This document shows, piece by piece, positions 10,446 to 61,614 of a stretch of DNA of 64,000 bases. The stretch is from NCBI GenBank assembly GCA_030648515.1, contig JAUSHK010000005.1, positions 162,895-226,894 of the forward strand, given 5' to 3'. Under the pieces are notes generated by a model that saw nothing but the letters and a program-made list of their open reading frames with translations, had not been told where the DNA came from and did not search any database. This DNA is from Candidatus Jorgensenbacteria bacterium. GTDB lineage: Bacteria; Patescibacteriota; Minisyncoccia; UBA6257; GWB1-50-10. Position 1 is the stretch's first letter. Each line of letters opens with the position of its first letter. The position numbers and the translations under genes are program-made.

Positions 10446-11753
10446 TTAGATTCCCCACAAACGAAACGAGCCGGAACTGCTTGTAGCATTTACATTGGAC
10501 GAGCTTGAGTAGTACTTGCTTGAGCCGGTGTAGAAACCGCTCGCATCAAGTCCGCTGGACCAATCCGTTTGCTGAAACGTCGCGTTTTTCCAGCGGGTTA
10601 CGAAACTCGCTAGCGCCGCTTGAAGCGTTGACGCTCCGTTATTCCATTCCACAGTTGCAGTTACTTTTTGTGTTGATGGATCATCGCTTGATCCGCCGGC
10701 GCACGGCGATACGCCGCTTATCGTACTTGATGAATCTGCTGTCCTGCACACATTTTCTACAGAAAACCACCGCGTGAAAATCCTATTGTTATAAAGGCGT
10801 TTTACATCATCTGCCGAGAAAGCGAGGTTATAGATACGGACGTCGTCAATGTAGCCGTTCCAATAAAAACCACTACTATGCCTGCCGATGTAGAGAGTGT
10901 CACTGTTACTTAACGAGCCGCTCTTTGCTGCTATGGTATTTATTAAATCCCCATCTACATACAACGCGGTGCCATTTGTCCTGTCGGCAGAAATGGCAAT
11001 GTTGTACCATATTCCAGTGCTTATTGCGCTACTTGTTGCGAGCGATGAATTCCCACTGCTTACTTCATATCCACCTTGAAATACGTTTGATGGACTAATG
11101 CATAATTGGTAGTTCGGGTATGCAGCCGCATTTTTTGTGATTATACAGTGGTATGCGCCGTCCAAGGCATTTGTATTTACCCATGCCGTTATTGTGAAAT
11201 CCCCGGTTGTGATGTTATTAGTGTTTTCCGCAGTTACATAGGCGTCTACGCCGTTAAAACTCAGACAGTTGCCGATCTTACACGTTGATGATGCCCGCGT
11301 TGGACTGTTCGTGAGAGTCCCATTATTGTTATTTCCCGTCGCGTCATACGTTGTTGTACTCGTTGAGGTGACATCCTCGTCAAATTTCCATTCGCCGACA
11401 AGCCCGTTTGTAACATCATTATCTAAAATGCCTTCTTTCCCCTGAACAACGAAAAGCCTAGAACTTGACGCATTCAAGTAATACTGCGTACTCGTTCCCT
11501 TTGTGAGTCCATATAAGTTTTGCCAACTCTCTCCGCTCCATGCGTTTACTTTATCAATAAGTTCCTGCCCTATGGTTGAAGCGGACTGATTCCGTTCAAT
11601 GCCGACGTTCGAACGCAAAACACTCGAAATCGCTATCGTCGCCCCGCCGATAATAATCGCTCCGACTGACAAACCAATAAGCACTTCAACGAGGGACTGG
11701 CCGACTCGATTAGTTAGTAGTGAGTAGTGAGTAGTGAGTAGTTTTTTAGACAT
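10446..11753 (-). CDS. type IV pilin-like (pseudopilin) protein with C-terminal LamG/concanavalin-like domain
   Basis: The leader MSKKLLTTHYSLLTNRVG is followed by a prepilin cleavage/methylation motif G|QSLVEVLIGL (Glu at +5). The C-terminal LamG-like region reads WNGYIDDVRIYNLAFSADDVKRLYNN. The ORF is open further upstream to 11810 (MSRRDIV...). Confidence 0.7.
   Translation of the reverse strand: MSKKLLTTHYSLLTNRVGQSLVEVLIGLSVGAIIIGGATIAISSVLRSNVGIERNQSASTIGQELIDKVNAWSGESWQNLYGLTKGTSTQYYLNASSSRLFVVQGKEGILDNDVTNGLVGEWKFDEDVTSTSTTTYDATGNNNNGTLTNSPTRASSTCKIGNCLSFNGVDAYVTAENTNNITTGDFTITAWVNTNALDGAYHCIITKNAAAYPNYQLCISPSNVFQGGYEVSSGNSSLATSSAISTGIWYNIAISADRTNGTALYVDGDLINTIAAKSGSLSNSDTLYIGRHSSGFYWNGYIDDVRIYNLAFSADDVKRLYNNRIFTRWFSVENVCRTADSSSTISGVSPCAGGSSDDPSTQKVTATVEWNNGASTLQAALASFVTRWKNATFQQTDWSSGLDASGFYTGSSKYYSSSSNVNATSSSGSFRLWGI
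11712..11743. repeat. 32-nt heptamer-array repeat R, copy 1 (AGTTAGT + 3x AGTGAGT)
   Basis: agttagtagtgagtagtgagtagtgagtagtt matches the copies at 44333 and 46161 at 31 of 32 positions. On the coding strand it is CTACTCA x3.5 and encodes LLTTHYSLLT. Confidence 0.9.
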
Positions 11754-11791
11754 ATGTAAATACGATAAGATTATTTTATCAGTTCTATCTA

Positions 11792-11829
11792 CTATGTCCC
11801 TTCTGGACATCTCCCATAGGGAGACAAAC
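11792..11829. repeat. double-hairpin element H, copy 1 (ctatGTCCCttctGGACatCTCCCataGGGAGacaaac)
   Basis: Two adjacent 4-5 bp hairpins. The second copy, in reverse-complement orientation, is at 44518..44555 (34 of 38 identical). The GGGAG-ATG-TCC core encodes MSRRDIV on the minus strand. Confidence 0.85.
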
Positions 11830-11848
11830 TACCAACTACAAACTTCAC
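11824..11848. repeat. inverted heptamer-array repeat R-prime, copy 1 (acaaactaccaactacaaacttcac)
   Basis: Shares the 17-mer actaccaactacaaact with 46618..46648. Its reverse complement is built of the same AGTNNGT heptamer units as R (AGTTTGT AGTTGGT AGTTTGT). Confidence 0.8.
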
Positions 11849-13020
11849 TTTAGGTCATTATACATGCTCAACACCTCCGCTGCGGTGAGCGCGCGTTTAT
11901 AGATGCGGACCTCGTCAATTGAACCACTGAAATAATCCGTTGATTGCGCCCCTATTGCCGTATACCCGCCAACAGTTTCAGTGTTTGCCTGCGCTAATGT
12001 ATTTGCGCTAAGCGTTTCTTCTGTTCCATCAAGATACAATTTTGGCGTTGTCGCATTTACCCCTATCACAGCGCAAATGTTATGCCAACTTGTATCAATC
12101 GCGGATGTTGATTTAGCATCGCCGTGCCCGGTATGACTGTACCAAAAATTGCCATCTGAAGTTACGGTAAAAATATATCCGTTTGCGGTATTGTCTATTC
12201 CTCCATAATTAATTCTTGTAGAAACTATTCCGCCACCCACGCCGGTGTTTCTTTTTACCCACGCACATATCGTTTTTGCATCGTTTGCGCCTGCGCCTGA
12301 ATTAGTTAGAGCGCTTACATAACTACTTACGCCGTCAAAACTCAGACACCCTCCAGCTTTGCAGCTTGAACCGGAAGCCCAGGTCGGACTATTTGTTGCC
12401 GTGCCATTATTACCCTGTCCTGAAGCGTCATATGTTGTTGTCGCCGTTCCTTCATCAAAATGCCAGTATCCTACCATTCCAGATTCAAAGCGCGTCGTAA
12501 CGCTGCCGCGCGTATTTACAATCACATCTCCCATAAACGCATCAGCGGCGCCGGTTACAATTGATACAATTTTTTTTGATGAAAGCGCGCCTGTTCGCGC
12601 CGCGAACGCTAGGTCAAGCGTACTTGAGGTGTACGGGTTTGAAAATCTTACATTGCGGGTTGAAAGCGCATATGTATTTGTGGTAGTTCCAGCACTAAAG
12701 CTTGTTCCTTGAAACACGTCGTAGATTTGCGAAGAAGTCGTATTGATAAAGTGGACTCCCCACGCGAGCCCGCTCTCCTGGGCTATTGAACGATTTTTTG
12801 CATCGTTTATCGCCGCGGAAAGTTCGCGAAGCGTGAGTTTTATGTTTTGGCTTCCTCCAAATCGCCCCATTACAGCCACGCCAGCAACTGTGAGTATCAC
12901 CATAAGCCCAATCACAATTAAGAGTTCAATGAGGGTGAAACCACCGCACGCCTTGAAGCGCGTTGGTATTAAGTATCTAGTATCATGTATCATGTATTTT
13001 TTCTGCGTATTTTTTTCCAT
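11845..13020 (-). CDS. type IV pilin-like protein with C-terminal LamG domain
   Basis: Classical G|FTLIELLIVIGLM prepilin motif after the leader MEKNTQKKYMIHDTRYLIPTRFKACGG. LamG-like C-terminus reads SGSIDEVRIYKRALTAAEVLSMYNDLK. Confidence 0.75.
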   Translation of the reverse strand: MEKNTQKKYMIHDTRYLIPTRFKACGGFTLIELLIVIGLMVILTVAGVAVMGRFGGSQNIKLTLRELSAAINDAKNRSIAQESGLAWGVHFINTTSSQIYDVFQGTSFSAGTTTNTYALSTRNVRFSNPYTSSTLDLAFAARTGALSSKKIVSIVTGAADAFMGDVIVNTRGSVTTRFESGMVGYWHFDEGTATTTYDASGQGNNGTATNSPTWASGSSCKAGGCLSFDGVSSYVSALTNSGAGANDAKTICAWVKRNTGVGGGIVSTRINYGGIDNTANGYIFTVTSDGNFWYSHTGHGDAKSTSAIDTSWHNICAVIGVNATTPKLYLDGTEETLSANTLAQANTETVGGYTAIGAQSTDYFSGSIDEVRIYKRALTAAEVLSMYNDLK

Positions 13021-13053
13021 ACTTAATACTTTATACTTGCTACCTGATACTTT
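12980..13053. repeat. heptamer tandem arrays at the 5' end of the pilin-like gene: (GTATCAT)x2.5 inside the leader codons and (ATACTTN)x3+1 just upstream
   Basis: gtatcatgtatcatgtat lies at 12980-12997 (coding strand ATACATGATACATGATAC, each unit carrying an ATG). atacttaatactttatacttg...atacttt lies at 13019-13053. Confidence 0.8.
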
Positions 13054-14257: not shown

Positions 14258-14323
14258 AGTAATTGGTAATTGGCTTTTATGTTATTTTCTCAAATTTAAT
14301 ATCTAATTACTAGCTGTTAACCG

Positions 14324-21486: not shown

Positions 21487-21520
21487 CCGCCGCGGCGGCG
21501 CGGCGGAATTTTCGATTTTT
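21487..21520. terminator. bidirectional rho-independent terminator between convergent genes
   Basis: CCGCCGCG-GCGG-CGCGGCGG hairpin followed by AATTTTCGATTTTT, with an A-rich run on the other side. Confidence 0.7.
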
Positions 21521-22256
21521 ATTTACTAAACGCTTTCACGATTTGCTCCATTTCGCCGCCCAGTATTTTTTCAATATTGTGAAATTTTTTCCCAATTCTG
21601 TGGTCAGTGATTCTGTCTTCCGGGAAATTGTACGTTCTGATTTTCTCCGCCCGCTCGCCCGAGCCAATTTGTTCGTTGCGCAGTTCGCCGACTGATCCGA
21701 CAGCTTGCTCTTTCTGCATTTCAAAAAGTTTTGCGCGCAGAACCTCCATCGCTTTCTCGCGGTTCGCGTGCTGTGAGCGTTCTTCGCGGGACCCTACCAC
21801 TAACCCGGTTGGTTTATGCGTAATACGAACGGCGGTTTCAACTTTATTAACATTCTGCCCGCCGGGACCGCCAGCGCGCGAAAACGTAACCTCTAAGTCG
21901 CTTTCTTTTACATCCACTGCCTTCGCTTCAACGACCGGCAAAACCGCCACTGATGCGGTTGATGTATGAATTCTTCCCTGCCGCTCGGTTTCAGGAATTC
22001 GCTGTACTCGGTGCACGCCTGATTCTTGCTTCAAGGCATCGTAAACGCCGAGGCCCGCTATTTCCGCGACAAGCGTTTTATATCCGCGTGCGCCGCTCAT
22101 ACTTGAATCGAGCGTCACAAACTGCCACCCGCGCTTCGCGGCATATTTCTGATACATCCGTGCCAAGTCGCCCGCAAAAAGCGACGCTTCGTCTCCACCG
22201 GTTCCCGCGCGCACTTCAAGAATGATTTTATTAATTGTGGTTTCCATAAATACCAT
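21519..22256 (-). CDS. prfA: peptide chain release factor 1-like protein lacking N-terminal domain 1
   Basis: GGQ motif ([14 protein letters not shown]), RF1-type tripeptide region [14 protein letters not shown] (PxT class). The ORF is 245 aa and aligns to RF1 from about residue 107. An in-frame TAA lies directly upstream of the start. Confidence 0.75.
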
Positions 22257-22338
22257 TTAAACACAAGAAACGCTGTTCAGCAATTGCCTTATTTCTAAAT
22301 TGCTGTATGTGATTAGATGGGGATGCTCCTTGTTCTAT

Positions 22339-22374
22339 AGCACAGGTGGTATGACATGTCATACCACCTGTGCT
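22339..22374. promoter_or_regulatory. 36-bp perfect palindrome overlapping a -10-like TATAAT in a divergent intergenic region (candidate operator)
   Basis: agcacaggtggtatgacatgtcataccacctgtgct is immediately followed by tataat (22374-22379), about 19 nt before the probable start of the HTH gene. The GGTGGTATGAC arm recurs at 22812-22835. Confidence 0.6.
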
Positions 22375-22397
22375 ATAATTATGTTATAGCTAACAAT

Positions 22398-22784
22398 ATG
22401 CCATCTCCGCTACCGTTGAAAAACCTTTCTTTATCGCACAAGGAATTGGAAAGGATGTATTGGAAGAAGATATTGAAATCCGAAAAACTTTTTGATTCGC
22501 TGATTACCTCGAGCGAACGCCACAACATAGTTATGCGTGCCGCAGTAGCGGAACTTGTAGATTCAGGAATGGGGACTCGACAAATCTCAAGAGAGCTTAG
22601 TATTTCTCGGCAAACCATAAGCAATATAAAAAGGATTACTAAAGAGAGTGCTTATAAAAGTTACCGCGAACGAGGTAAAACAGAACGGAGAAAGAAAGCG
22701 TATAACGGCAACTCTTCTCAGAAGAAAAAAGAACATGACCAGCACTACCGCCAAACTAAGTACGGAAAAGTTTACTTGCCTTGA
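22398..22784 (+). CDS. TrpR-like / YerC-YecD family helix-turn-helix protein
   Basis: ERMYWKKILKSEKLFDSLITSSERHNIVMRAAVAELVDSGMGTRQISRELSISRQTISNIKR resembles YerC/YecD and the Trp-repressor fold. The ORF is open from 22356 but the palindrome overlaps that start. Stop is TGA. Confidence 0.55.
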   Translation: MPSPLPLKNLSLSHKELERMYWKKILKSEKLFDSLITSSERHNIVMRAAVAELVDSGMGTRQISRELSISRQTISNIKRITKESAYKSYRERGKTERRKKAYNGNSSQKKKEHDQHYRQTKYGKVYLP

Positions 22785-22802: not shown

Positions 22803-22849
22803 CAGATTTTGGGTGGTATGACACGTCATACCACCGCGCTTTAAATCTG
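22803..22849. terminator. extended hairpin between convergent genes (bidirectional terminator candidate; shares an arm with the 22339 palindrome)
   Basis: cagatttt-G-GGTGGTATGAC-ac-GTCATACCACC-gcgc-tttaaatctg. The outer stem overlaps the fba stop codon. Confidence 0.55.
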
Positions 22850-33545: not shown

Positions 33546-33620
33546 TTTGTGCTGCACAGAAGCGGGAATTTAACCCGCGAGTTTTCTTTGTGAGAAAAGA
33601 CGATCGTTTTCTGCGCTGCG

Positions 33621-33690
33621 CGGCGGGAGAAGGATTCGAACCTCCGTAATCCCATTTGAATAGGATGCTCTGCCTCTAAGCTATCCCGCC
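33621..33690 (-). tRNA. tRNA with non-canonical anticodon loop (6- or 8-nt; candidate anticodons CAA/UCA), G73 discriminator
   Basis: Good acceptor (GGCGGGA/TCCCGCC), D arm and canonical T arm (GGAGG-TTCGAAT-CCTTC). The anticodon region ATCCT-ATTCAAAT-GGGAT only folds with an 8-nt loop; the alternative TCCTA/TGGGA stem leaves a 6-nt loop. Confidence 0.55.
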
Positions 33691-33820: not shown

Positions 33821-33824
33821 GTCG

Positions 33825-33897
33825 AACGGGGAGAAGGACTTGAACCTCCGACCTAATGCTCCCGAAGCACTTGCTCTACCAGCTGAGCTATCCCCGT
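33825..33897 (-). tRNA. tRNA-Pro (anticodon CGG)
   Basis: ACGGGGA-TA-GCTC-AGCTGGTA-GAGC-A-AGTGC-TTCGGGA-GCATT-AGGTC-GGAGG-TTCAAGT-CCTTC-TCCCCGT-T. A1-U72 and U73 are atypical for tRNA-Pro. Confidence 0.7.
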
Positions 33898-41618: not shown

Positions 41619-41797
41619 AGAATTAACTTATAACTAATAATGTATAACCTATGACCCATGACGATTGCTGTTATTTGTTATTGGTTATTTGTTATACGTT
41701 GCTTTTATTTTTGACCTTTCATTGACGGCCGACGACCTATGACATCCAATGGCCGTAATTAGTTCCTTGTCGTTTGTCATTAGTTATTAGTCATTTG
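41619..41797. repeat. AT-rich intergenic region with several short direct and inverted repeats (candidate promoter/regulator-binding region)
   Basis: ttatttgttat x2, three ATGAC-centred copies (cctatgac, ccatgacg, cctatgacat), and ttgtcattagtta/ttagtcatttgtcac. Confidence 0.45.
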
Positions 41798-44227
41798 TCA
41801 CCTGAATATTACATCACTTCCGAAAATCACGTTACTTCCGAGCGAGATTTCCTGCGATTCGCCCGTTGTGAATGACGTATATGAACCATAACTTGTTCCT
41901 CCGGAATTTGTGGCAAAGGCACGAACATAATACGTTACGCCCGCGGAAAGTTCCGATACTAACAAACTATATTCCCCCGTTCCGTATGACCCGCTTTCGC
42001 TAACTGTCCATGTGTCGTCTTGCGTAAGGCCATATTTGAAACCGCGAGCCGTTGCATTTGCTCCGCCGGTAGCTGTAATATTCCCATTTAATGTTGAGCT
42101 CGATACCCCAATGTTTGTTATACCGCTTGTTGTTATTGTCGGTGCGACTGCTGGAGTTGCAAACGAAACATACGAACCATACGCCGTACCTTGAGCGTTC
42201 GTAGCAAAAGAACGCACATAATAAGTTGTTCCAGGCGAAAGTCCGGTCAAAGAACCCGTGTACGCGCCGGTATCGTAAGTTCCGCTTTCGCTCACTGTCC
42301 ACGTGTCGGTCTCAGTCAAGCCGTATTTGAAACCACGAGTAGTCGGCGACGAACCTCCTATATCCGTTATGTTTCCATTCGCAGTTGCCGTTGTTGAGCT
42401 TACGCTTGATGCCGCTTGCGTTGTCACTACCGGAGATGCTGTAATAGTCGCAAAAGAGACATAGGAGCCATAACCAAAACTAGTAATAGAATATTGGTAA
42501 ACTTTCCCCTGACCAATATCAAGAAGGTACATACTGGTTCCGTCTGGCTTGAAATATGAACTTGTAAGCGTTACAGAAGGACTGTTTGCAAAACTTACAC
42601 TGTCGTAACTCGCAGTTGAAACATCCCATGGAGTAGATAGGGTATATTGATATGAGTTCGCCACGCCATATCCGGCGCTGAACATTTTAGTTCCGTCCGA
42701 ATTAAAGAATACAGCGTCTGAACGGCTTAACTGGCTCCCGACAGAAAAGGACTTACTATCATAACTTGCTGTAGAAACATCCCACGGGGTTGATAAGGAA
42801 TATTGGGTGACAATTTTCGTATCATAAGGGCTTACATACATCTTAGTTCCGTCTGATTTAAAATAAGCGTTAATTGGGGATCCTGAAGCCGTGCTCATAA
42901 ATTTAGTATCATAGGTTGCGCTTGTCACGTCCCAGGCGGAACTTAATGAATATTGGAATACTTTTTGTGCACCGTAATCAGTCACGTACATTTTAGTTCC
43001 GTCACCTTTAAAGAATACTCCAGCTGTAAAATAAGATTGGCCTGCCACGCTATAACTTGAATTATAACTTGCCGTAGAAACATCCCACGGGGTTGATAAT
43101 GTATATTGGCCAACTATATGATAAGTAGCGTCGTATGAAGTAATATACATACTGGTTCCATCTGGCTTGAAAGAAACACCAAACTTGTTATCTTTAGCAT
43201 TCGTTATAGCGTAGTTCACGCTGTCATAACTTGCCGTTGATAGGCTCCAAGGCGTCCCTTTCATAGCAAACGCACGGGAATAGTAAGTAGTACCAGGTGA
43301 AAGCCCGGTTAACGAACCCGTGAACGCCCCCGTTCCAAATGAACCATCTTCGCTTATACTCCACGTGTCTGTTTCCGTGAGGCCGTACTTGAAACCGCGA
43401 GTTGTGGCGTTGGCTCCATTGGTAGCAGTGATGTTGCCGTTCCCAGTCGCAGTTGTCGATCCAACACTGGATGCCGCTTGTGTGGTGACTGTCGGCGCGA
43501 TTGCAAGTGGATAAGCCAAACCATTTCCAGAATTATATAAAGTTGTTACTTCAGTAGAAGTTAAAGCCCTACTCCACACTCCTATTTCATCCATATCTCC
43601 TGAATAAAACCATGCAGTTTCGTCGTAACTTGCTCCAAAAGTAACATCTGCTCCAATATCTATTGAACCAAGCCCTGTTAATTGTGTGCTTTGTATTCCA
43701 TCTAAATAAATATACGCTGTTGCTCCTGAATAAGATAAAACTACATGGTGCCAGGCGTTATCGGTTGGAGTTGCTAAATTACTTTCTTTTACTGTTGCGT
43801 TGTCCAAAAACCCAAGAGTGTTTGCTGCTCTGTTTAAATGAAACATAAATCTTGGCGAATAACTATCAAGTAAAGATCTATATGTTCCGCCCGCTGTTTT
43901 TATCCACATTGAAATTGAATAGGCAGTTCCCAACGATGACAATCCGTTCACTGAAATATAATCATTCCCGCTAAGCGTATACGCCGTCCCTATTTTTCCG
44001 GTAGTGCCGTATGTCATTGTGGCACTGACTGTCCCAGTATTTGCTCCGGCGCTATCCGCCGCGTTTCCGCTTGCTTCGTCAAATTTGTAATAAGAAACCA
44101 AACTATCGGTTAAAGCGGCTGCCTTCGTTGTAAAAATGCCTGCTCCGAAATATGTAAGAATGAGCGCGACGACTGCGAGGACGCTGGTTATTTCGTGCGC
44201 AAGTTTTTTTATTTTAGTTTTATTCAT
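41798..44227 (-). CDS. giant membrane-anchored surface protein with LamG domain, YxLSTPWDVSTASYD repeats and Ig/FN3-like repeats
   Basis: TM anchor, then a LamG region (LVSYYKFDEASGNAADSAG...YIYLDGIQ). Then at least 6 copies of the Q(Y)xLSTPWDVSTASYDS repeat and 3 copies of the TTQAASSVxSTTATxNGNIT...RGFKYGLT repeat. Confidence 0.6.
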   Translation of the reverse strand: MNKTKIKKLAHEITSVLAVVALILTYFGAGIFTTKAAALTDSLVSYYKFDEASGNAADSAGANTGTVSATMTYGTTGKIGTAYTLSGNDYISVNGLSSLGTAYSISMWIKTAGGTYRSLLDSYSPRFMFHLNRAANTLGFLDNATVKESNLATPTDNAWHHVVLSYSGATAYIYLDGIQSTQLTGLGSIDIGADVTFGASYDETAWFYSGDMDEIGVWSRALTSTEVTTLYNSGNGLAYPLAIAPTVTTQAASSVGSTTATGNGNITATNGANATTRGFKYGLTETDTWSISEDGSFGTGAFTGSLTGLSPGTTYYSRAFAMKGTPWSLSTASYDSVNYAITNAKDNKFGVSFKPDGTSMYITSYDATYHIVGQYTLSTPWDVSTASYNSSYSVAGQSYFTAGVFFKGDGTKMYVTDYGAQKVFQYSLSSAWDVTSATYDTKFMSTASGSPINAYFKSDGTKMYVSPYDTKIVTQYSLSTPWDVSTASYDSKSFSVGSQLSRSDAVFFNSDGTKMFSAGYGVANSYQYTLSTPWDVSTASYDSVSFANSPSVTLTSSYFKPDGTSMYLLDIGQGKVYQYSITSFGYGSYVSFATITASPVVTTQAASSVSSTTATANGNITDIGGSSPTTRGFKYGLTETDTWTVSESGTYDTGAYTGSLTGLSPGTTYYVRSFATNAQGTAYGSYVSFATPAVAPTITTSGITNIGVSSSTLNGNITATGGANATARGFKYGLTQDDTWTVSESGSYGTGEYSLLVSELSAGVTYYVRAFATNSGGTSYGSYTSFTTGESQEISLGSNVIFGSDVIFR

Positions 44228-44230
44228 GTT

Positions 44231-46240
44231 TTATTTAATAATAAAGCTTGCTTTTTCATTTTGATCTTTCGCTAATGTGGGCCAATTTTTCCAATCAAAT
44301 CGCTTTCCGACGAGGCGGAAGGAGATGGGAATAGTTTGTAGTGAGTAGTGAGTAGTGAGTAGTTGAGCGGAGAAGATGACTTTGTTGCCGGAGATTGCGT
44401 ATGAAACTGGGGCTGATACTCCGATTGGGGTGGCAAAAACATCAACATTGTCAGCGGAAAAATCCACGGCGTTTTTCCAGACCCACAGGTCCGAGCCCAC
44501 CTCGACTTTAGAAAAGTCGATGACGTGCTCGTAGGAGTTTGTCTCCCTACGGGAGATGTCCCGTAGGGACATAGTTGGGACAAGAGTCGCGCGACCGATA
44601 AATTCTTCACGGACGCCTCCGGCGATTGCCGACGCGTATGTTGAATATTTTTTCCCATCAATTTCATAGAGCGGATCGATAGTCGCCGCAGTGATTTTAT
44701 TTACTCCTACAAGATTATTGTTATTCATATTCAAATTTGTGATCGCCGCGCCGCCGAATGAAAGATTGCCGTTCAGCGACGATGTTCCGGTGACGAGAAA
44801 TGTTCCTTCAACAGAGAGCGTGTTTGTCGGAGTTGTCGTTGCGATGCCGACTGCTCCGGAAGTCGTGAGCGAGTATGGCATCTGCCCCGCATCGGGATCA
44901 AAATAATACGAGGAATCCGCAACGTCGTAATAAACGCCGGCCGAGAGATTGCCGTGGATGATGGCACTTTTTACGAACGATCCTGCCGGGCCGACTTCCA
45001 AGTATTCCGTCGGGGATGTGGTTGCGATACCAACTTTCCATGCCGTGCTTGATGCGTATATCGTGCTTCCGTTGAGCAACCAGAGTCCGGCGCTACCACC
45101 CGAGATAGCAGAGTCAACATAACTTTTCGTTGTGGCATCACTATCGCCTACTGGCGTCCCCACGACTACTGGCTGGGAAAAATACGAAGTGCCATTTACT
45201 TCAAATTTGTATGACGGGGAAGTAGTCGCTATACCGACGTTTCCGCCGTTTGGATTTAATAACAATGGTATTTCTGTCGCGAGATTACTTGAGTCATAAC
45301 CCTGTAGCCATGCCCCATATGGGGATGAAAGAGCTACGCCCATATCTAGAGCACCATTTGTGTTTCCGCTCCAAATACGAAATAACCCATTAGTAGTTGT
45401 TCCGGATGTTGCGGGTCCCACTGCAGCACCTGCAATAATTAATTTTGCATTTGGAAAATTTAATCCACCCCAAGTGTTGACTCCAATAGATGCGCTGCCA
45501 ATAACATCTAATTTATTTACCGGAGTACTGGTACCAATTCCAACATTTCCTGCTGTCGTCGCAAGCGTTGTTGTGCCGGTTATGTTTGTTGTACCAAGCG
45601 TGTAAAATGTCGCCGGCAAATTGCTTGTTGTTGAAGTACCAACAGCTAGACCGAGCGGAAACGCGTAATTTGCAGTTGTAAATGGACCGCCTAAAACATT
45701 CGCGGCGTCAATACTTGAAAGATACGCGCCCGTCCCGCGAAACGCGCCGTTTACTGTGCGTATGTCGCCCCCAACAATTAGCCGTTCATCAACGCCTGTT
45801 GAGGTCGCTTTAATGCCGATTCCAATACTGCCAAACTTATTAATGTCCATAACGACAAATCCTGGTAGGTTATCTGGCGCCCCTGATTCTCGATAAAGCT
45901 GGAGATTGCCAAAATTGCGGGCCGACCAAATATATGAATGGCCCGAGGTAAGGTTCTTTACGCCGACTCCAGGACTTGTTGTTGAAGCTACTATAAACAC
46001 GTACCCGTGCGACGACGAGCCGCTTTCCGTTGAGGTGGTGTTAAAAGTACTAACTGGGGAAGGCGCCGTTGTTCCAAAACCGATATTTAAATTTGAATCA
46101 ACACTAAACAGTCCCCCGCCGGTGCCCGCGGATTGGGTAGGACCGATGAAGGCACGGACAGTTTGTAGTGAGTAGTGAGTAGTGAGTAGTTCGAAAACGA
46201 GAATTACTACTACAAAGAAAGTTCTAGGGAAGTTTTTCAT
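44231..46240 (-). CDS. tail-fibre-repeat surface protein (contains the R repeat at both ends and the H element)
   Basis: Hydrophobic N-terminus, multiple VGIATTSPxxxLEV-type repeats, and a long Gly/Thr/Ser-rich beta-helix-like body. R copies lie at 46161-46192 (codons 17-27) and 44333-44364 (near the C-terminus). H lies at 44518-44555, antisense. Confidence 0.5.
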   Translation of the reverse strand: MKNFPRTFFVVVILVFELLTTHYSLQTVRAFIGPTQSAGTGGGLFSVDSNLNIGFGTTAPSPVSTFNTTSTESGSSSHGYVFIVASTTSPGVGVKNLTSGHSYIWSARNFGNLQLYRESGAPDNLPGFVVMDINKFGSIGIGIKATSTGVDERLIVGGDIRTVNGAFRGTGAYLSSIDAANVLGGPFTTANYAFPLGLAVGTSTTSNLPATFYTLGTTNITGTTTLATTAGNVGIGTSTPVNKLDVIGSASIGVNTWGGLNFPNAKLIIAGAAVGPATSGTTTNGLFRIWSGNTNGALDMGVALSSPYGAWLQGYDSSNLATEIPLLLNPNGGNVGIATTSPSYKFEVNGTSYFSQPVVVGTPVGDSDATTKSYVDSAISGGSAGLWLLNGSTIYASSTAWKVGIATTSPTEYLEVGPAGSFVKSAIIHGNLSAGVYYDVADSSYYFDPDAGQMPYSLTTSGAVGIATTTPTNTLSVEGTFLVTGTSSLNGNLSFGGAAITNLNMNNNNLVGVNKITAATIDPLYEIDGKKYSTYASAIAGGVREEFIGRATLVPTMSLRDISRRETNSYEHVIDFSKVEVGSDLWVWKNAVDFSADNVDVFATPIGVSAPVSYAISGNKVIFSAQLLTTHYSLQTIPISFRLVGKRFDWKNWPTLAKDQNEKASFIIK
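44333..44364. repeat. 32-nt heptamer-array repeat R, copy 2
   Basis: agtttgtagtgagtagtgagtagtgagtagtt is identical to 46161-46192. Confidence 0.9.
44518..44555. repeat. double-hairpin element H, copy 2 (inverted relative to copy 1)
   Basis: gtttgtCTCCCtacGGGAGatGTCCCgtaGGGACatag is the reverse complement of the 11792-11829 architecture. The plus-strand ATG at 44536 opens a 37-codon ORF MSRRDIVGTRV... Confidence 0.85.
46161..46192. repeat. 32-nt heptamer-array repeat R, copy 3
   Basis: Identical to 44333-44364. Lies just inside the 5' end of ORF 44231..46240 and 45 nt downstream of the avd-like gene's stop. Confidence 0.9.
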
Positions 46241-46614
46241 AGACTGTTTACTAATTTATTCAACATTTTCATCACTTCACTTAATAGTTTTTGAGATTCG
46301 CCACAAAATTCGGTATTGTTGCAAAAATTTAGTTGTCTTGCAATTTCAATTTGAGTTTCTAGCTCAGCGCCGGACCCATAAGCGTTTAGTAAAAAATGTC
46401 GAAAATCTTTTCGTGAACTTCTTCTGCTTCCTTCGGCGATGTTTGAAGGTATTGAAACTACGGCTCGCTTCATCTGTATCCCAAGCGCGTATGTTTCCGT
46501 TTGTGGAAATTGATTAACTAATTTGTAAATTGATTTCACTAATTCCATGGATTTATTCCAAACTATTAAATCTTTGTATGAGCTTATTTTATCTGTTGAG
46601 TTTTGTTGTTCCAT
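46237..46614 (-). CDS. four-helix-bundle protein (23S rRNA intervening-sequence protein / Avd-like, TIGR02436 family)
   Basis: YKDLIVWNKSMELVKSIYKLVNQFPQTETYALGIQMKRAVVSIPSNIAEGSRRSSRKDFRHFLLNAYGSGAELETQIEIARQL is the canonical pattern of this family. Confidence 0.8.
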   Translation of the reverse strand: MEQQNSTDKISSYKDLIVWNKSMELVKSIYKLVNQFPQTETYALGIQMKRAVVSIPSNIAEGSRRSSRKDFRHFLLNAYGSGAELETQIEIARQLNFCNNTEFCGESQKLLSEVMKMLNKLVNSL

Positions 46615-46617
46615 TTT

Positions 46618-46648
46618 CTACTCACTACCAACTACAAACTACTCACTG
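46618..46648. repeat. inverted heptamer-array repeat R-prime, copy 2
   Basis: ctactcactaccaactacaaactactcactg lies 4 nt upstream of the avd-like start codon. It is inverted relative to R at 46161-46192. Confidence 0.8.
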
Positions 46649-53390: not shown

Positions 53391-54413
53391 TTATATAGCT
53401 GCTTCTTCATCAACTGATCTCCAAACGTCGCGAAGCGTTTTTAGTTCTGGATTTCCTTCTAACGCCTCTTCCCATGTTTTATATCTTGCCCGTTGTTCGT
53501 TATTAGCGTCCTCCATACTGCGCACACTCGCAAAACCTTCCATTTTGCGCTCTAACTCAAGCGACACATCGAGTTTAAAGTCTGGTTCTTCTAAGTGGAA
53601 CTCTTCCGCTTGTTTCTTTATTATTTCAGTTGTTCCCTCCGCTTCTTTAACTAGTTCGCTGTATAGTTTGCTCGTTTTACTAATATTCAACTCAACTACT
53701 TGTAGTTTTGACCCGAGCTGTTTAAGAGTCTCATCTTGTTCATCTACAAGCTGAAGCCATCCTCTTTTTTCCGAAAGAAGCTTATCAATCGCAGTTTTAT
53801 CAAAAATTTCGAAAAACTTTGTATCTTTGCGTTTTTCTTCCAAAAGTTTAATAATCTCGGCTCCTGATTTTGCATTTACTAGTTCCTCGTGTCCTTTGAT
53901 AAGACTTTTTATATTTTCCCACGCTTTTTTATGTTCTTTTTCCCTAATTTTAACCTCGCGTTCAAGTTCATGCTTCCTATCAGCAAGATTCTTAATTATC
54001 TCGGCAATATCGCGAGCCCTTAAACAGAGTTTTTCTTTTGTCGTCCGTATGTATTCTTTTGCTTTTTTCTTTTTTTCTTCATACTGTTTTTCCCATTCCA
54101 TTACTTCCGGTTTGGATCCTATTTTTTTAACTTCGCCGACTATTTCTATCTGTCTGCTTTTAATTTTTTTAATGAGGTCCCTGACATCGCCTAGGTCAAC
54201 TCCAGCTGGCGGGGTTTTTAATGTATTCTCTAGTTTTAAAAGTTTTCCTTGATTACTTTTAAGTTCATTCACTAATTCTGTCCTTTTTTCCAGTTCTTTC
54301 ATAAGCGGGCTATTTTGCTCATTAACTGCCGGGCCACCGCCAATACGCGCTCCACGAGTTTCGTGCGCATTCTCTTCTGTTCTACGAATTTGGGGTGTTT
54401 CAAATGGAGGCAT
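53391..54413 (-). CDS. coiled-coil hypothetical protein
   Basis: 340 aa, Lys/Glu-rich heptad-like sequence throughout. Confidence 0.4.
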   Translation of the reverse strand: MPPFETPQIRRTEENAHETRGARIGGGPAVNEQNSPLMKELEKRTELVNELKSNQGKLLKLENTLKTPPAGVDLGDVRDLIKKIKSRQIEIVGEVKKIGSKPEVMEWEKQYEEKKKKAKEYIRTTKEKLCLRARDIAEIIKNLADRKHELEREVKIREKEHKKAWENIKSLIKGHEELVNAKSGAEIIKLLEEKRKDTKFFEIFDKTAIDKLLSEKRGWLQLVDEQDETLKQLGSKLQVVELNISKTSKLYSELVKEAEGTTEIIKKQAEEFHLEEPDFKLDVSLELERKMEGFASVRSMEDANNEQRARYKTWEEALEGNPELKTLRDVWRSVDEEAAI

Positions 54414-55285: not shown

Positions 55286-55289
55286 TTTG

Positions 55290-55360
55290 TCGGGCTGCTG
55301 GGAATCGAACCCAGTCTACACCGACCCGAACGGTGCGTACTACCGGTATACTACAGCCCG
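55290..55360 (-). tRNA. tRNA-Pro (anticodon CGG)
   Basis: CGGGCTG-TA-GTAT-ACCGGTA-GTAC-G-CACCG-TTCGGGT-CGGTG-TAGA-CTGGG-TTCGATT-CCCAG-CAGCCCG-A. C1-G72 and A73 fit Pro. The 3' end is 4 nt from the dedA start codon. Confidence 0.8.
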
Positions 55361-58396: not shown

Positions 58397-58515
58397 TGCG
58401 TTTTCTCCTTGTTTATATGTTAAAAACAGCGGTTGTTTATTACTGGTTACAACATATCATATTATATATTATATGTCAATCATCGCAGCGTTTCGAAAAG
58501 CGAGTAAAATAGTAG

Positions 58516-61496: not shown

Positions 61497-61614
61497 TTAA
61501 CATTTGTAAGTTTCTAATGACAATTGTACTATTCTATTTTCTATCTGTCAACTATCCTCAATTCTTGTGATTCACTTTTCGCAATTCTTAAATCCTGAAT
61601 CTTGAATCTTTCCA

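Follow-up and report, generated by a model that had tools for sequence, protein, structure and literature searches.

A 30-bp double-hairpin repeat with two copies in a 64-kb Patescibacteria window is probably a small mobile element

We describe a small DNA repeat that occurs twice in a 64-kb stretch of contig JAUSHK010000005.1 (Candidatus Jorgensenbacteria bacterium), hereafter the window, whose positions serve as coordinates throughout. By its gene content, the window is core chromosome of a bacterium of the Candidate Phyla Radiation (CPR, or Patescibacteria). The repeat unit, to which we give the name E, is 30 bp long, and both window sites are probably copies of a small selfish mobile DNA repeat that is widespread in CPR/Patescibacteria. 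E is not a translation-start module and it is not an inversion site, the two roles in which the original prediction, made from the two copies, had cast it. What is unusual about E is its minimal size, its length of exactly ten codons, its conservation across lineages, its residence in essential genes and its association with a GIY-YIG nuclease gene. No description of it was found in Rfam or in the literature searched by literal sequence and by keywords.

Two pilin genes flank the first copy, which follows the stop of one by 20 nt and precedes the ATG of the other by 41 nt, and the second lies inside the gene for a 669-aa surface protein (Table 1). Copy 1 was found where it had been placed, at 11792-11829; copy 2, which had been given as 44518-44555, lies 19 nt away, at 44537-44574 of the minus strand, and the identity of the two 38-mers is 35/38, not 34/38. 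Such a pair arose in none of 100 dinucleotide shuffles. The substitutions had been thought to be confined to the hairpin loops. Two of them are, at 11802 (the middle base of loop 1) and 11816 (the first base of loop 2), but the third, at 11804 (T in copy 1, G in copy 2), breaks the C-G loop-closing pair of hairpin 1 in copy 1, so that the stems are not fully preserved; hairpin 1 of this copy has a 5-bp stem and a 5-nt loop. Copy 1 is predicted to fold into two hairpins on either strand, as DNA or as RNA (z about -2.4 to -3.9), and copy 2, whose loops TAC and GTA are complementary, into a single 11-bp hairpin (z about -5 to -6), with folding z-scores from -2.4 to -6.1 over the two copies. A mismatch scan, a generic hairpin scan and a covariance model found no third double-hairpin copy in the window. 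Copy 1 was also present, in the same arrangement, in an independent Logan assembly (contig L001, SRR13727527_44803).

When public genomes, one per species and 596 Gb in all, were scanned with the strict 20-base pattern TCCCNNNNGGACATCTCCCNNNGGGAG, at least 113 loci were matched, where about one chance match is expected from the length of the pattern and the size of the collection. E-bearing loci carry L-numbers here (L001, L018 and so on); the family counts of 111, 116 and 118 copies used below are among the matches listed, and copy numbers are lower bounds. The loci listed come nearly all from metagenome-assembled genomes of Patescibacteria, in at least 14 named candidate lineages (Staskawicz-, Paceibacter-, Berkel-, Vogel-, Kuenen-, Portnoy-, Uhr-, Harrison-, Nomura-, Kerfeld-, Yanofsky-, Moran-, Lipton- and Nealsonbacteria), the exceptions being four high-GC or chance-looking matches. 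Taxonomic labels are those of the deposited records, and binning errors probably account for some of the non-CPR ones. Several genomes have at least 4 to 8 loci each.

An alignment of 111 copies gives a 30-nt core of TGTCCC-TNC-GGGACA followed by TCTCCC-GNA-GGGAGA, that is, two 15-nt hairpins that abut one another and consist of a 6-bp stem and a triloop each, and the ends of E are inverted repeats of the form T(G/C)TCCCnnnGGGA(C/G)A. The reverse complement has the same architecture, a TNC hairpin and then a GNA hairpin, and E is thus nearly strand-symmetric; with these loops, a TNC and a GNA hairpin are present on each DNA strand. A covariance model of the two-hairpin structure was used to find diverged copies in the same loci, and their stems were still paired (TCACCC/GGGTGA, TCCCGC/GCGGGA, TCTCGC/GCGAGA, TCTGCC/GGCAGA, TCTACC/GGTAGA and TCCCCC/GGGGGA). 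Over 34 distinct sequences, 95.6% of cells are paired and six of the 12 pairs show double-sided changes, covariation values that were reached by 0 of 500 shuffles or slid registers. Such compensatory change speaks for base pairing in single-stranded DNA or RNA, rather than a protein that reads a fixed duplex sequence. The middle bases of the two loops are complementary in only 11 of 111 copies, window copy 2 among them, as against the 31% expected. Because loop complementarity is depleted, it appears that the two-hairpin form is preserved and the long hairpin avoided, and a single long hairpin was rejected as the conserved fold on the same count. The further copies and the covariance-aware search for which the original prediction had called therefore both bear out its conserved and structured double-hairpin element. 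Rfam covariance models matched neither window copy and none of 12 related loci, and a known RNA family was rejected for that reason; a phage origin was likewise rejected, no match having been found in IMG/VR viral contigs.

Other hairpin modules stand beside E in CPR genomes (L074 3940-4000; L107 2585-2660; the flanks in L021, L044 and L103; L045 7442-7504). They include chains such as ATCACCC-TAC-GGATGA/TCACCC-GCA-GGGCGA and a CCTGCC-nnnn-GGCAGG family, and one E copy carries such a module in its loop.

By a stricter criterion, long open reading frames (ORFs) enclose 32 of 118 copies, 23 in sense and nine in antisense, and the in-ORF copies occur in both orientations and in all frames. Recognisable host genes encode LeuRS, LepA, TopA, LigA, GlmS, TsaD, KsgA (at two different sites), YchF, Fmt, MnmA, UppP, prepilin peptidase and the PolA 5'-exonuclease. 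Virtually every copy of the core is open in four of six frames; in the other frame of each strand, about a quarter of the copies have a stop. It is because E is ten codons long and open in these frames that it is tolerated in essential genes. Where solved structures allow a comparison, the LepA of L032 has 43 residues in place of 3 in Aquifex LepA, and 23 residues in the LeuRS of L091 have no counterpart in the Thermus enzyme; the frame continues in both.

The PolA gene offers a site that can be compared in its filled and its empty state. Among the best 120 homologues of the L048 protein (74-100% identity), 117 could be scored, and 113 of these, orthologues of 74-85% identity, lack the peptide CPSGTSPEGR (…TDL-KPDY-VVACFD), while two are filled (…TDL-CPSGTSPEGR-KPLY-IVACFD). 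The filled and empty DNA sequences differ by an exact 30-column gap, GATTT[ATGTCCC…GGGAG]AAAGCC, with no target duplication. A more distant genome, L081, has E at the same PolA site and in the same orientation. Copies are also found within one another, in the loop of another E at G/CA (L070) and, at the same TCTC/CC position in two genomes, inside the stem of another E (L025, L110), and L084 has a tandem (E + heptamer)x3 of 111 nt within an ORF. The flanks of E have the consensus TT(G/A/T/C) on the left and (C/A)AA on the right, with TCTG/CA, CCCG/CA and TCTC/CC as recurrent sites, and there is no orientation bias of E relative to the flanking genes.

Copy 2 in the window fits this picture as ten in-frame codons, (M)SLRDISRRE(T), of the 669-aa ORF. 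Its site is a variable linker in which the E peptide is absent from 11 of 11 database homologues; in the L018 orthologue this linker holds E as well, in the opposite orientation, and that orthologue has insertions at both of the places where the 669-aa protein carries its E insertion and the heptamer-array insertion described below. The homologues of the host protein bear Patescibacteria names, the nearest one found being 56% identical, and an exact-protein look-up of the ORF returned no record. The ten residues that copy 2 adds to this linker of a surface protein are tolerated, and copy 1, in a heptamer tract between two pilin genes, is an intergenic passenger.

The original prediction had drawn attention to a GGGAG box abutting an ATG. 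Read on the other strand, the junction of the two E hairpins is GGGAGATGTCCC, and it was proposed that a Shine-Dalgarno-like GGGAG, sequestered in hairpin 2, makes E a cis-regulatory RNA that controls a product beginning with MSRRDIV. The GGGAG-ATG-TCC string and the MSRRDIV starts are indeed present in both copies, each of which opens an ORF (starts 11810 and 44556); moreover, the terminal GGGAGA stands 5 nt before a real start codon in L012 and L016, and GGGACA at the end of copy 1 forms a promoter-like match with a downstream TGnTAAAAT upstream of the pilin gene. We nevertheless hold this account to be very unlikely. There is no spacer between GGGAG and ATG, and the string, being the hairpin junction of the family consensus, recurs in some 120 copies whatever their context, orientation or frame, without a bias of orientation relative to genes. 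The claimed upstream extension of the pilin ORF to 11810 merely runs into E, whereas ATG 11753 leads to a prepilin motif (…NRVG/QSLVEV) with an ordinary 18-residue leader. The 37-codon plus-strand ORF at copy 2 is antisense to conserved coding sequence, and the promoter-like match is at chance level (2 found, 1.2 expected). The inverted orientation of the copies, GGGAG-ATG and MSRRDIV have no special meaning, the last two being by-products of the family consensus. Copy 1 was also rejected as a canonical terminator, as it has no T-tract.

Both window copies have arrays of a 7-nt repeat in their neighbourhood (R arrays, Table 1), and the original prediction had set an R repeat 50-150 bp from each; the distance is 52 nt for core 1 and 178 nt for core 2. 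The three R arrays have the same orientation, and a degenerate inverted copy lies at 46618-46648. On the coding strand the units belong to one family, CnnACTA, which reads TCTACTA/E/CAAACTA-CCAACTA-CAAACTT at copy 1, CCAACTA/E/CAAACTC at copy 2 and (CTCACTA)3-CAAACTA in the R arrays. The string that copy 2 interrupts (CCAACTA/E/CAAACT) is CCAACTACAAACT, which is found uninterrupted at about 11833-11845 and within 46618-46648. In the family, 41 of 116 copies have 7-nt core flanks that are identical at five or more of seven positions, compared with 7 of 116 in a shifted control, and lag-7 autocorrelation is raised in the flanks. A 7-bp target duplication as a general rule was rejected, since the PolA pair has no duplication and heptamer insertions occur in LepA without E: CPR LepA homologues carry heptamer-type insertions of 26-61 residues at one loop, with E in only one of 120. 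The QLLTTHYSLQT insertion of the 669-aa protein is absent in most homologues and is present in diverged form in the two closest only. Heptamer arrays are thus found independently of E, which sits at junctions between their units. R and E share a neighbourhood because E lands in heptamer arrays, and not as paired recombination sites.

Period 7 accounts for 13 of the 30 tandem-repeat rows of the window. These arrays, of several different units, are concentrated where genes start and in the 5' coding portions of the genes for pilins and surface proteins, and they could act as phase-variation switches because a change of one unit shifts the frame. In other CPR genomes, housekeeping proteins have low-complexity insertions that similar heptamer arrays encode. 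The L001 assembly breaks inside an R array, at the equivalent of window position ~11718, as expected if such repeats fragment short-read assemblies. Several LepA homologues (P0205, P0201, P0174, P0160, P0140 and P0242) are calls of only 220-320 aa on contigs of up to 1.1 Mb, and some of these short calls end at a shared position (…VGDTVTL.KYF.K..K), which suggests a recurrent site at which the LepA gene of some genomes is interrupted or split.

In about 26 of 116 copies, E stands in the context GGTCTG/E/CAAAACC or its complement, between the G and CA of a tRNA-Cys-like anticodon loop and without a flanking repeat. So precise a position could point to an intervening sequence, removed after transcription or skipped by ribosomes, as could the strong hairpins and the fact that removal of 30 nt keeps the frame. 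Removal or skipping would account for how E is tolerated in essential genes and in tRNA-Cys anticodon loops. Yet the tRNA-Cys-like hosts of E are 5' or 3' fragments or chimeras, with unpaired acceptor and anticodon stems, and they adjoin intact tRNA-Cys and tRNA-Leu(UAA) genes; E as a tRNA-Cys intron was rejected on this evidence. In addition, in-ORF copies never have an in-frame stop, and the one frame per strand that is capable of TAG is used only with non-T loop variants, as expected of a translated E (an observation partly forced by ORF detection), and there is no match to a known ribozyme or to Rfam. We therefore find an intervening sequence scarcely credible.

Between the tRNA fragment and the intact tRNA gene stands an ORF whose product, of about 80 aa, has a GIY-YIG catalytic domain (PF01541, 62 bits). 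Among the loci listed, 14 of the 14 closest GIY-YIG ORFs have E no more than about 160 nt away, in most cases 5-15 nt upstream of the ATG, and none of five more distant GIY-YIG ORFs has E nearby. L076, L083, L106, L114 and L061 have directly oriented E copies on both sides of the GIY-YIG gene, or of that gene together with tRNA-Cys. The order in the cassette is tRNA-Cys 5' fragment, E, GIY-YIG gene, intact tRNA-Cys, E and tRNA-Leu(UAA), with the second E sometimes repeated together with tRNA 3' fragments; examples are L076 2400-2900, L083 6880-7660, L114 200-930, L106 and L031 1900-2480. The cassette recurs in CPR genomes and looks like a homing-endonuclease-type element that targets the tRNA-Cys anticodon region.

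The original prediction also took the two window copies to mark a segment that can invert or be exchanged, and recombinase crossover at E, acting on the 32.7 kb between the copies or on the 5' regions of pilin genes, would be in keeping with their mutually inverted orientation. An inverted pair is uninformative, because any two dispersed copies are inverted half the time. The GIY-YIG and tRNA-Cys cassettes, bracketed by E in a shared GTCTG...CAAAA context, do have an att-like appearance, but the bracketing copies are direct and not inverted repeats, and E is otherwise dispersed singly at many unrelated sites, including the insides of essential genes. The 32.7-kb interval holds PilB/PilC, 16S rRNA, L25, release factor and FBA genes, is co-oriented with its flanks and has uniform GC skew; Pfam annotation assigns only housekeeping functions to the flanking genes, and inversion would truncate the 669-aa ORF. 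No Hin-like (serine) or XerD-like (tyrosine) recombinase match was detected among the window ORFs, in what was a weak single-sequence test. Taken together, these observations make recombination at E extremely improbable, and a dispersed repeat remains the better description of both copies.

A further alternative is that E is a selected functional motif, such as a DNA-uptake sequence of these cells, which are naturally competent and bear pili, a binding site for a conserved factor or a REP-like stabiliser or attenuator of mRNA (REP, repetitive extragenic palindrome). The near-identity of the sequence across very distant lineages, the equal use of both orientations together with the presence of copies in coding regions, as in uptake sequences, the stability of the hairpins (z -2.4 to -6.1) and the REP-typical position of copy 1 between co-transcribed-looking pilin genes are all compatible with this. 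Uptake sequences, however, occur at about one per kb, whereas E has a density of only two copies per 64 kb; E is a discrete 30-bp block that is absent from most orthologues, not the product of point mutation; and the compensatory stem changes speak against recognition of a fixed double-stranded sequence. On balance we think a selected motif unlikely. An exapted local effect on pilin mRNA is compatible with a mobile repeat, and copy 1 may, by analogy with REP sequences, possibly affect the stability, processing or read-through of that mRNA.

If E is a mobile repeat, we suggest that its movement would involve an intermediate of hairpin or single-stranded DNA, much as for IS200/IS605 or REP elements, and an enzyme acting on it in trans. 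The best candidate for this enzyme would be the small GIY-YIG nuclease whose gene is bracketed by E in other genomes. E lands at T-rich/(C/A)AA junctions, among them those between the units of heptamer arrays, the G/CA of tRNA-Cys-like anticodon loops and other E copies. More speculatively, E and the nuclease of about 80 aa might together make up an undescribed kind of hairpin transposon or homing system that has reached much of the CPR, pastes a 30-bp module of ten codons without target duplication, uses heptamer arrays and the G/CA of stem-loops as landing pads, and creates peptide insertions in essential proteins; we regard this larger proposal as possible, though doubtful.

Several points weigh against a selfish mobile repeat. 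The mobilising enzyme is a candidate only: there is no GIY-YIG gene in the window, GIY-YIG enzymes are known as nucleases and not as transposases, and a phmmer search with one approximate IS200 TnpA query, a weak test, gave nothing convincing for a Y1/HUH transposase in the window or in 0.8 Mb of E loci. Conservation across very distant lineages could reflect selection for function. The model that recovered the diverged copies takes structure into account and favours pairing, and the strict pattern had fixed most stem positions, so that conservation within the main subfamily is partly circular. The presence and absence of E in PolA, the one site compared in both its filled and its empty state, could stem from precise loss rather than gain.

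Table 1. Coordinates of E, the heptamer arrays and neighbouring features in the window
Feature	Position	Strand	Remarks
E copy 1, core TGTCCC-TTC-TGGACA/TCTCCC-ATA-GGGAGA	11795..11824	+	intergenic; covariance model 52.3 bits
E copy 2, core TGTCCC-TAC-GGGACA/TCTCCC-GTA-GGGAGA	44542..44571	-	covariance model 61.9 bits
Full similarity between the window copies	11791..11830 vs 44536-44575		core + ACTA left, CAAACT right; 40 nt, 93%
Array (ACAAACT)x3 adjoining copy 1	11824..11844	+	contains CCAACTACAAACT
R array (TAGTGAG)x4.6	11711..11742	+	minus strand encodes LLTTHYSLLT in pilin leader
R array	44338..44363	+	encodes QLLTTHYSLQT near C-terminus of 669-aa ORF
Third R array	46165..46190	+	N-terminal region of 669-aa ORF
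Other period-7 arrays	12980-12997; 13019-13038; 14259-14273; 41669-41695; 41776-41800; 46624-46642; 54057-54075; 58459-58474; 61586-61610		
Type IV pilin-like gene	10446..11753	-	N_methyl motif and LamG domain; likely start ATG 11753
Second pilin gene	11845-13020	-	stop 20 nt from copy 1
Gene for 669-aa surface protein	44231..46240	-	no Pfam domain; hosts copy 2 and two R arrays
tRNA-like gene	33620-33690		ARAGORN anticodon undetermined, two-base; Rfam tRNA model 55 bits
tRNA-Pro(CGG) genes (two)	33824-33897; 55289-55360		

The genes of the window include rpoB, mltG, ftsW, tpi and those for a VirD4-like ATPase, LamG-domain pilins, PilC, PilB, L25, a release factor, FBA, CysRS, DnaB and RecR, together with a 16S rRNA gene that has no neighbouring 23S gene. 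Next to the E-bearing ORF is a gene for an 809-aa LamG/Fn3-like repetitive surface protein (41798-44227, minus strand), with internal DNA repeats of period ~150-156 nt (42600-43255) and longer repeats ~1062 nt apart. Directly upstream of the E-bearing ORF, inverted heptamer arrays at 46159-46189 and 46618-46648 (31 nt, 81% complementary) bracket the ORF 46237-46614 (minus strand), which encodes a 125-aa 23S_rRNA_IVP/bAvd-like four-helix bundle (PF05635, 122 bits) and looks like a small inserted cassette. Only two 23S_rRNA_IVP ORFs were found among the E loci listed, one of them adjoining E, which is uninformative on any association.

Elsewhere in the window, a perfect 42-nt palindrome, TATAGCACAGGTGGTATGACA/TGTCATACCACCTGTGCTATA, at 22336-22377 overlaps the start of a 142-aa Trp-repressor/HTH-like ORF (helix-turn-helix; 22356-22784), and its 24-nt core is present again at 22812-22835, just past the end of that ORF; they may represent operator sites or the termini of a small element. 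The release-factor ORF at 21519-22256 (minus strand) covers profile positions 100-194 of the PCRF domain, which are its C-terminal half only, and by analogy with the programmed +1 frameshift of prfB, the N-terminal part must presumably lie in another, upstream frame.

CPR/Patescibacteria have tiny, streamlined genomes that are thought to be poor in repetitive or selfish DNA. If our interpretation is true, CPR proteins would be shaped by a force so far unrecognised, a 30-bp element of nearly constant sequence in many candidate lineages that goes cleanly into essential genes such as those for aminoacyl-tRNA synthetases, topoisomerase, ligase and EF4. The link of E to a minimal GIY-YIG nuclease and to heptamer arrays would also lead to errors of annotation, such as false N-terminal extensions and fused or split ORFs, and to assembly breaks. 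For the window itself, phase variation of pilins by inversion need no longer be invoked, and more generally E provides a very small and well-defined substrate for a possibly new mechanism of insertion.

Among known systems, E works most like REP sequences, the miniature relatives of IS200/IS605 elements and the Rickettsia palindromic elements, but it lacks features that define each of them. The REP sequences of proteobacteria, their bacterial interspersed mosaic elements (BIMEs) and the REP-associated tyrosine transposases (RAYTs) that form REPtrons with them resemble E in being GC-rich hairpin repeats of 20-40 nt that are multicopy, occur in both orientations, occupy positions between the genes of operons and bracket the gene of an enzyme. 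E differs from them in lacking a GTAG/CGTC tag, its ends being TGTC.../...GAGA and GTAG arising only if loop 2 is GTA, and in being a fixed pair of abutting hairpins that is not strictly extragenic. It is, moreover, conserved across a superphylum, whereas REP sequences are conserved within species, and its partner gene encodes a GIY-YIG nuclease rather than a Y1/HUH RAYT. With IS200/IS605 and the palindrome-associated transposable elements (PATEs) E shares the absence of target duplication, a short target motif, end hairpins and precise presence or absence; however, no Y1 transposase or TnpB was found near E, the search for the former being the weak one above, and no strand bias is evident, and ends of the IS608 type need guide and cleavage sequences outside the hairpin, whereas E has no sequence between or outside its hairpins.

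Miniature inverted-repeat transposable elements (MITEs) such as Correia/NEMIS and ERIC are likewise small and non-autonomous, with terminal inverted repeats that in E are its two 15-nt halves, and they show similar dispersed copies, insertion polymorphism, nested and tandem copies and effects on neighbouring genes. MITEs duplicate their target, whereas E does not at the one filled and empty site compared, and the 7-nt direct repeats at about 35% of E copies are pre-existing units of heptamer arrays. A shufflon also has short inverted repeats near pilin genes, but in the case of E no recombinase and no alternative segments were detected, and the repeats are genome-wide and phylum-wide. Free-standing GIY-YIG homing endonuclease genes (T4 seg, segB) lie, like the E cassettes, in a tRNA cluster with duplicated or chimeric tRNA borders, although they are not known with a dispersed family of hairpin repeats. 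The Rickettsia palindromic elements, finally, are palindromic, lie in frame in essential genes, where they apparently give translated surface peptides, and are found in intergenic positions as well; they measure about 100-150 bp and are confined to Rickettsia, whereas E is a 30-bp element of the CPR that is open in four of its six frames.

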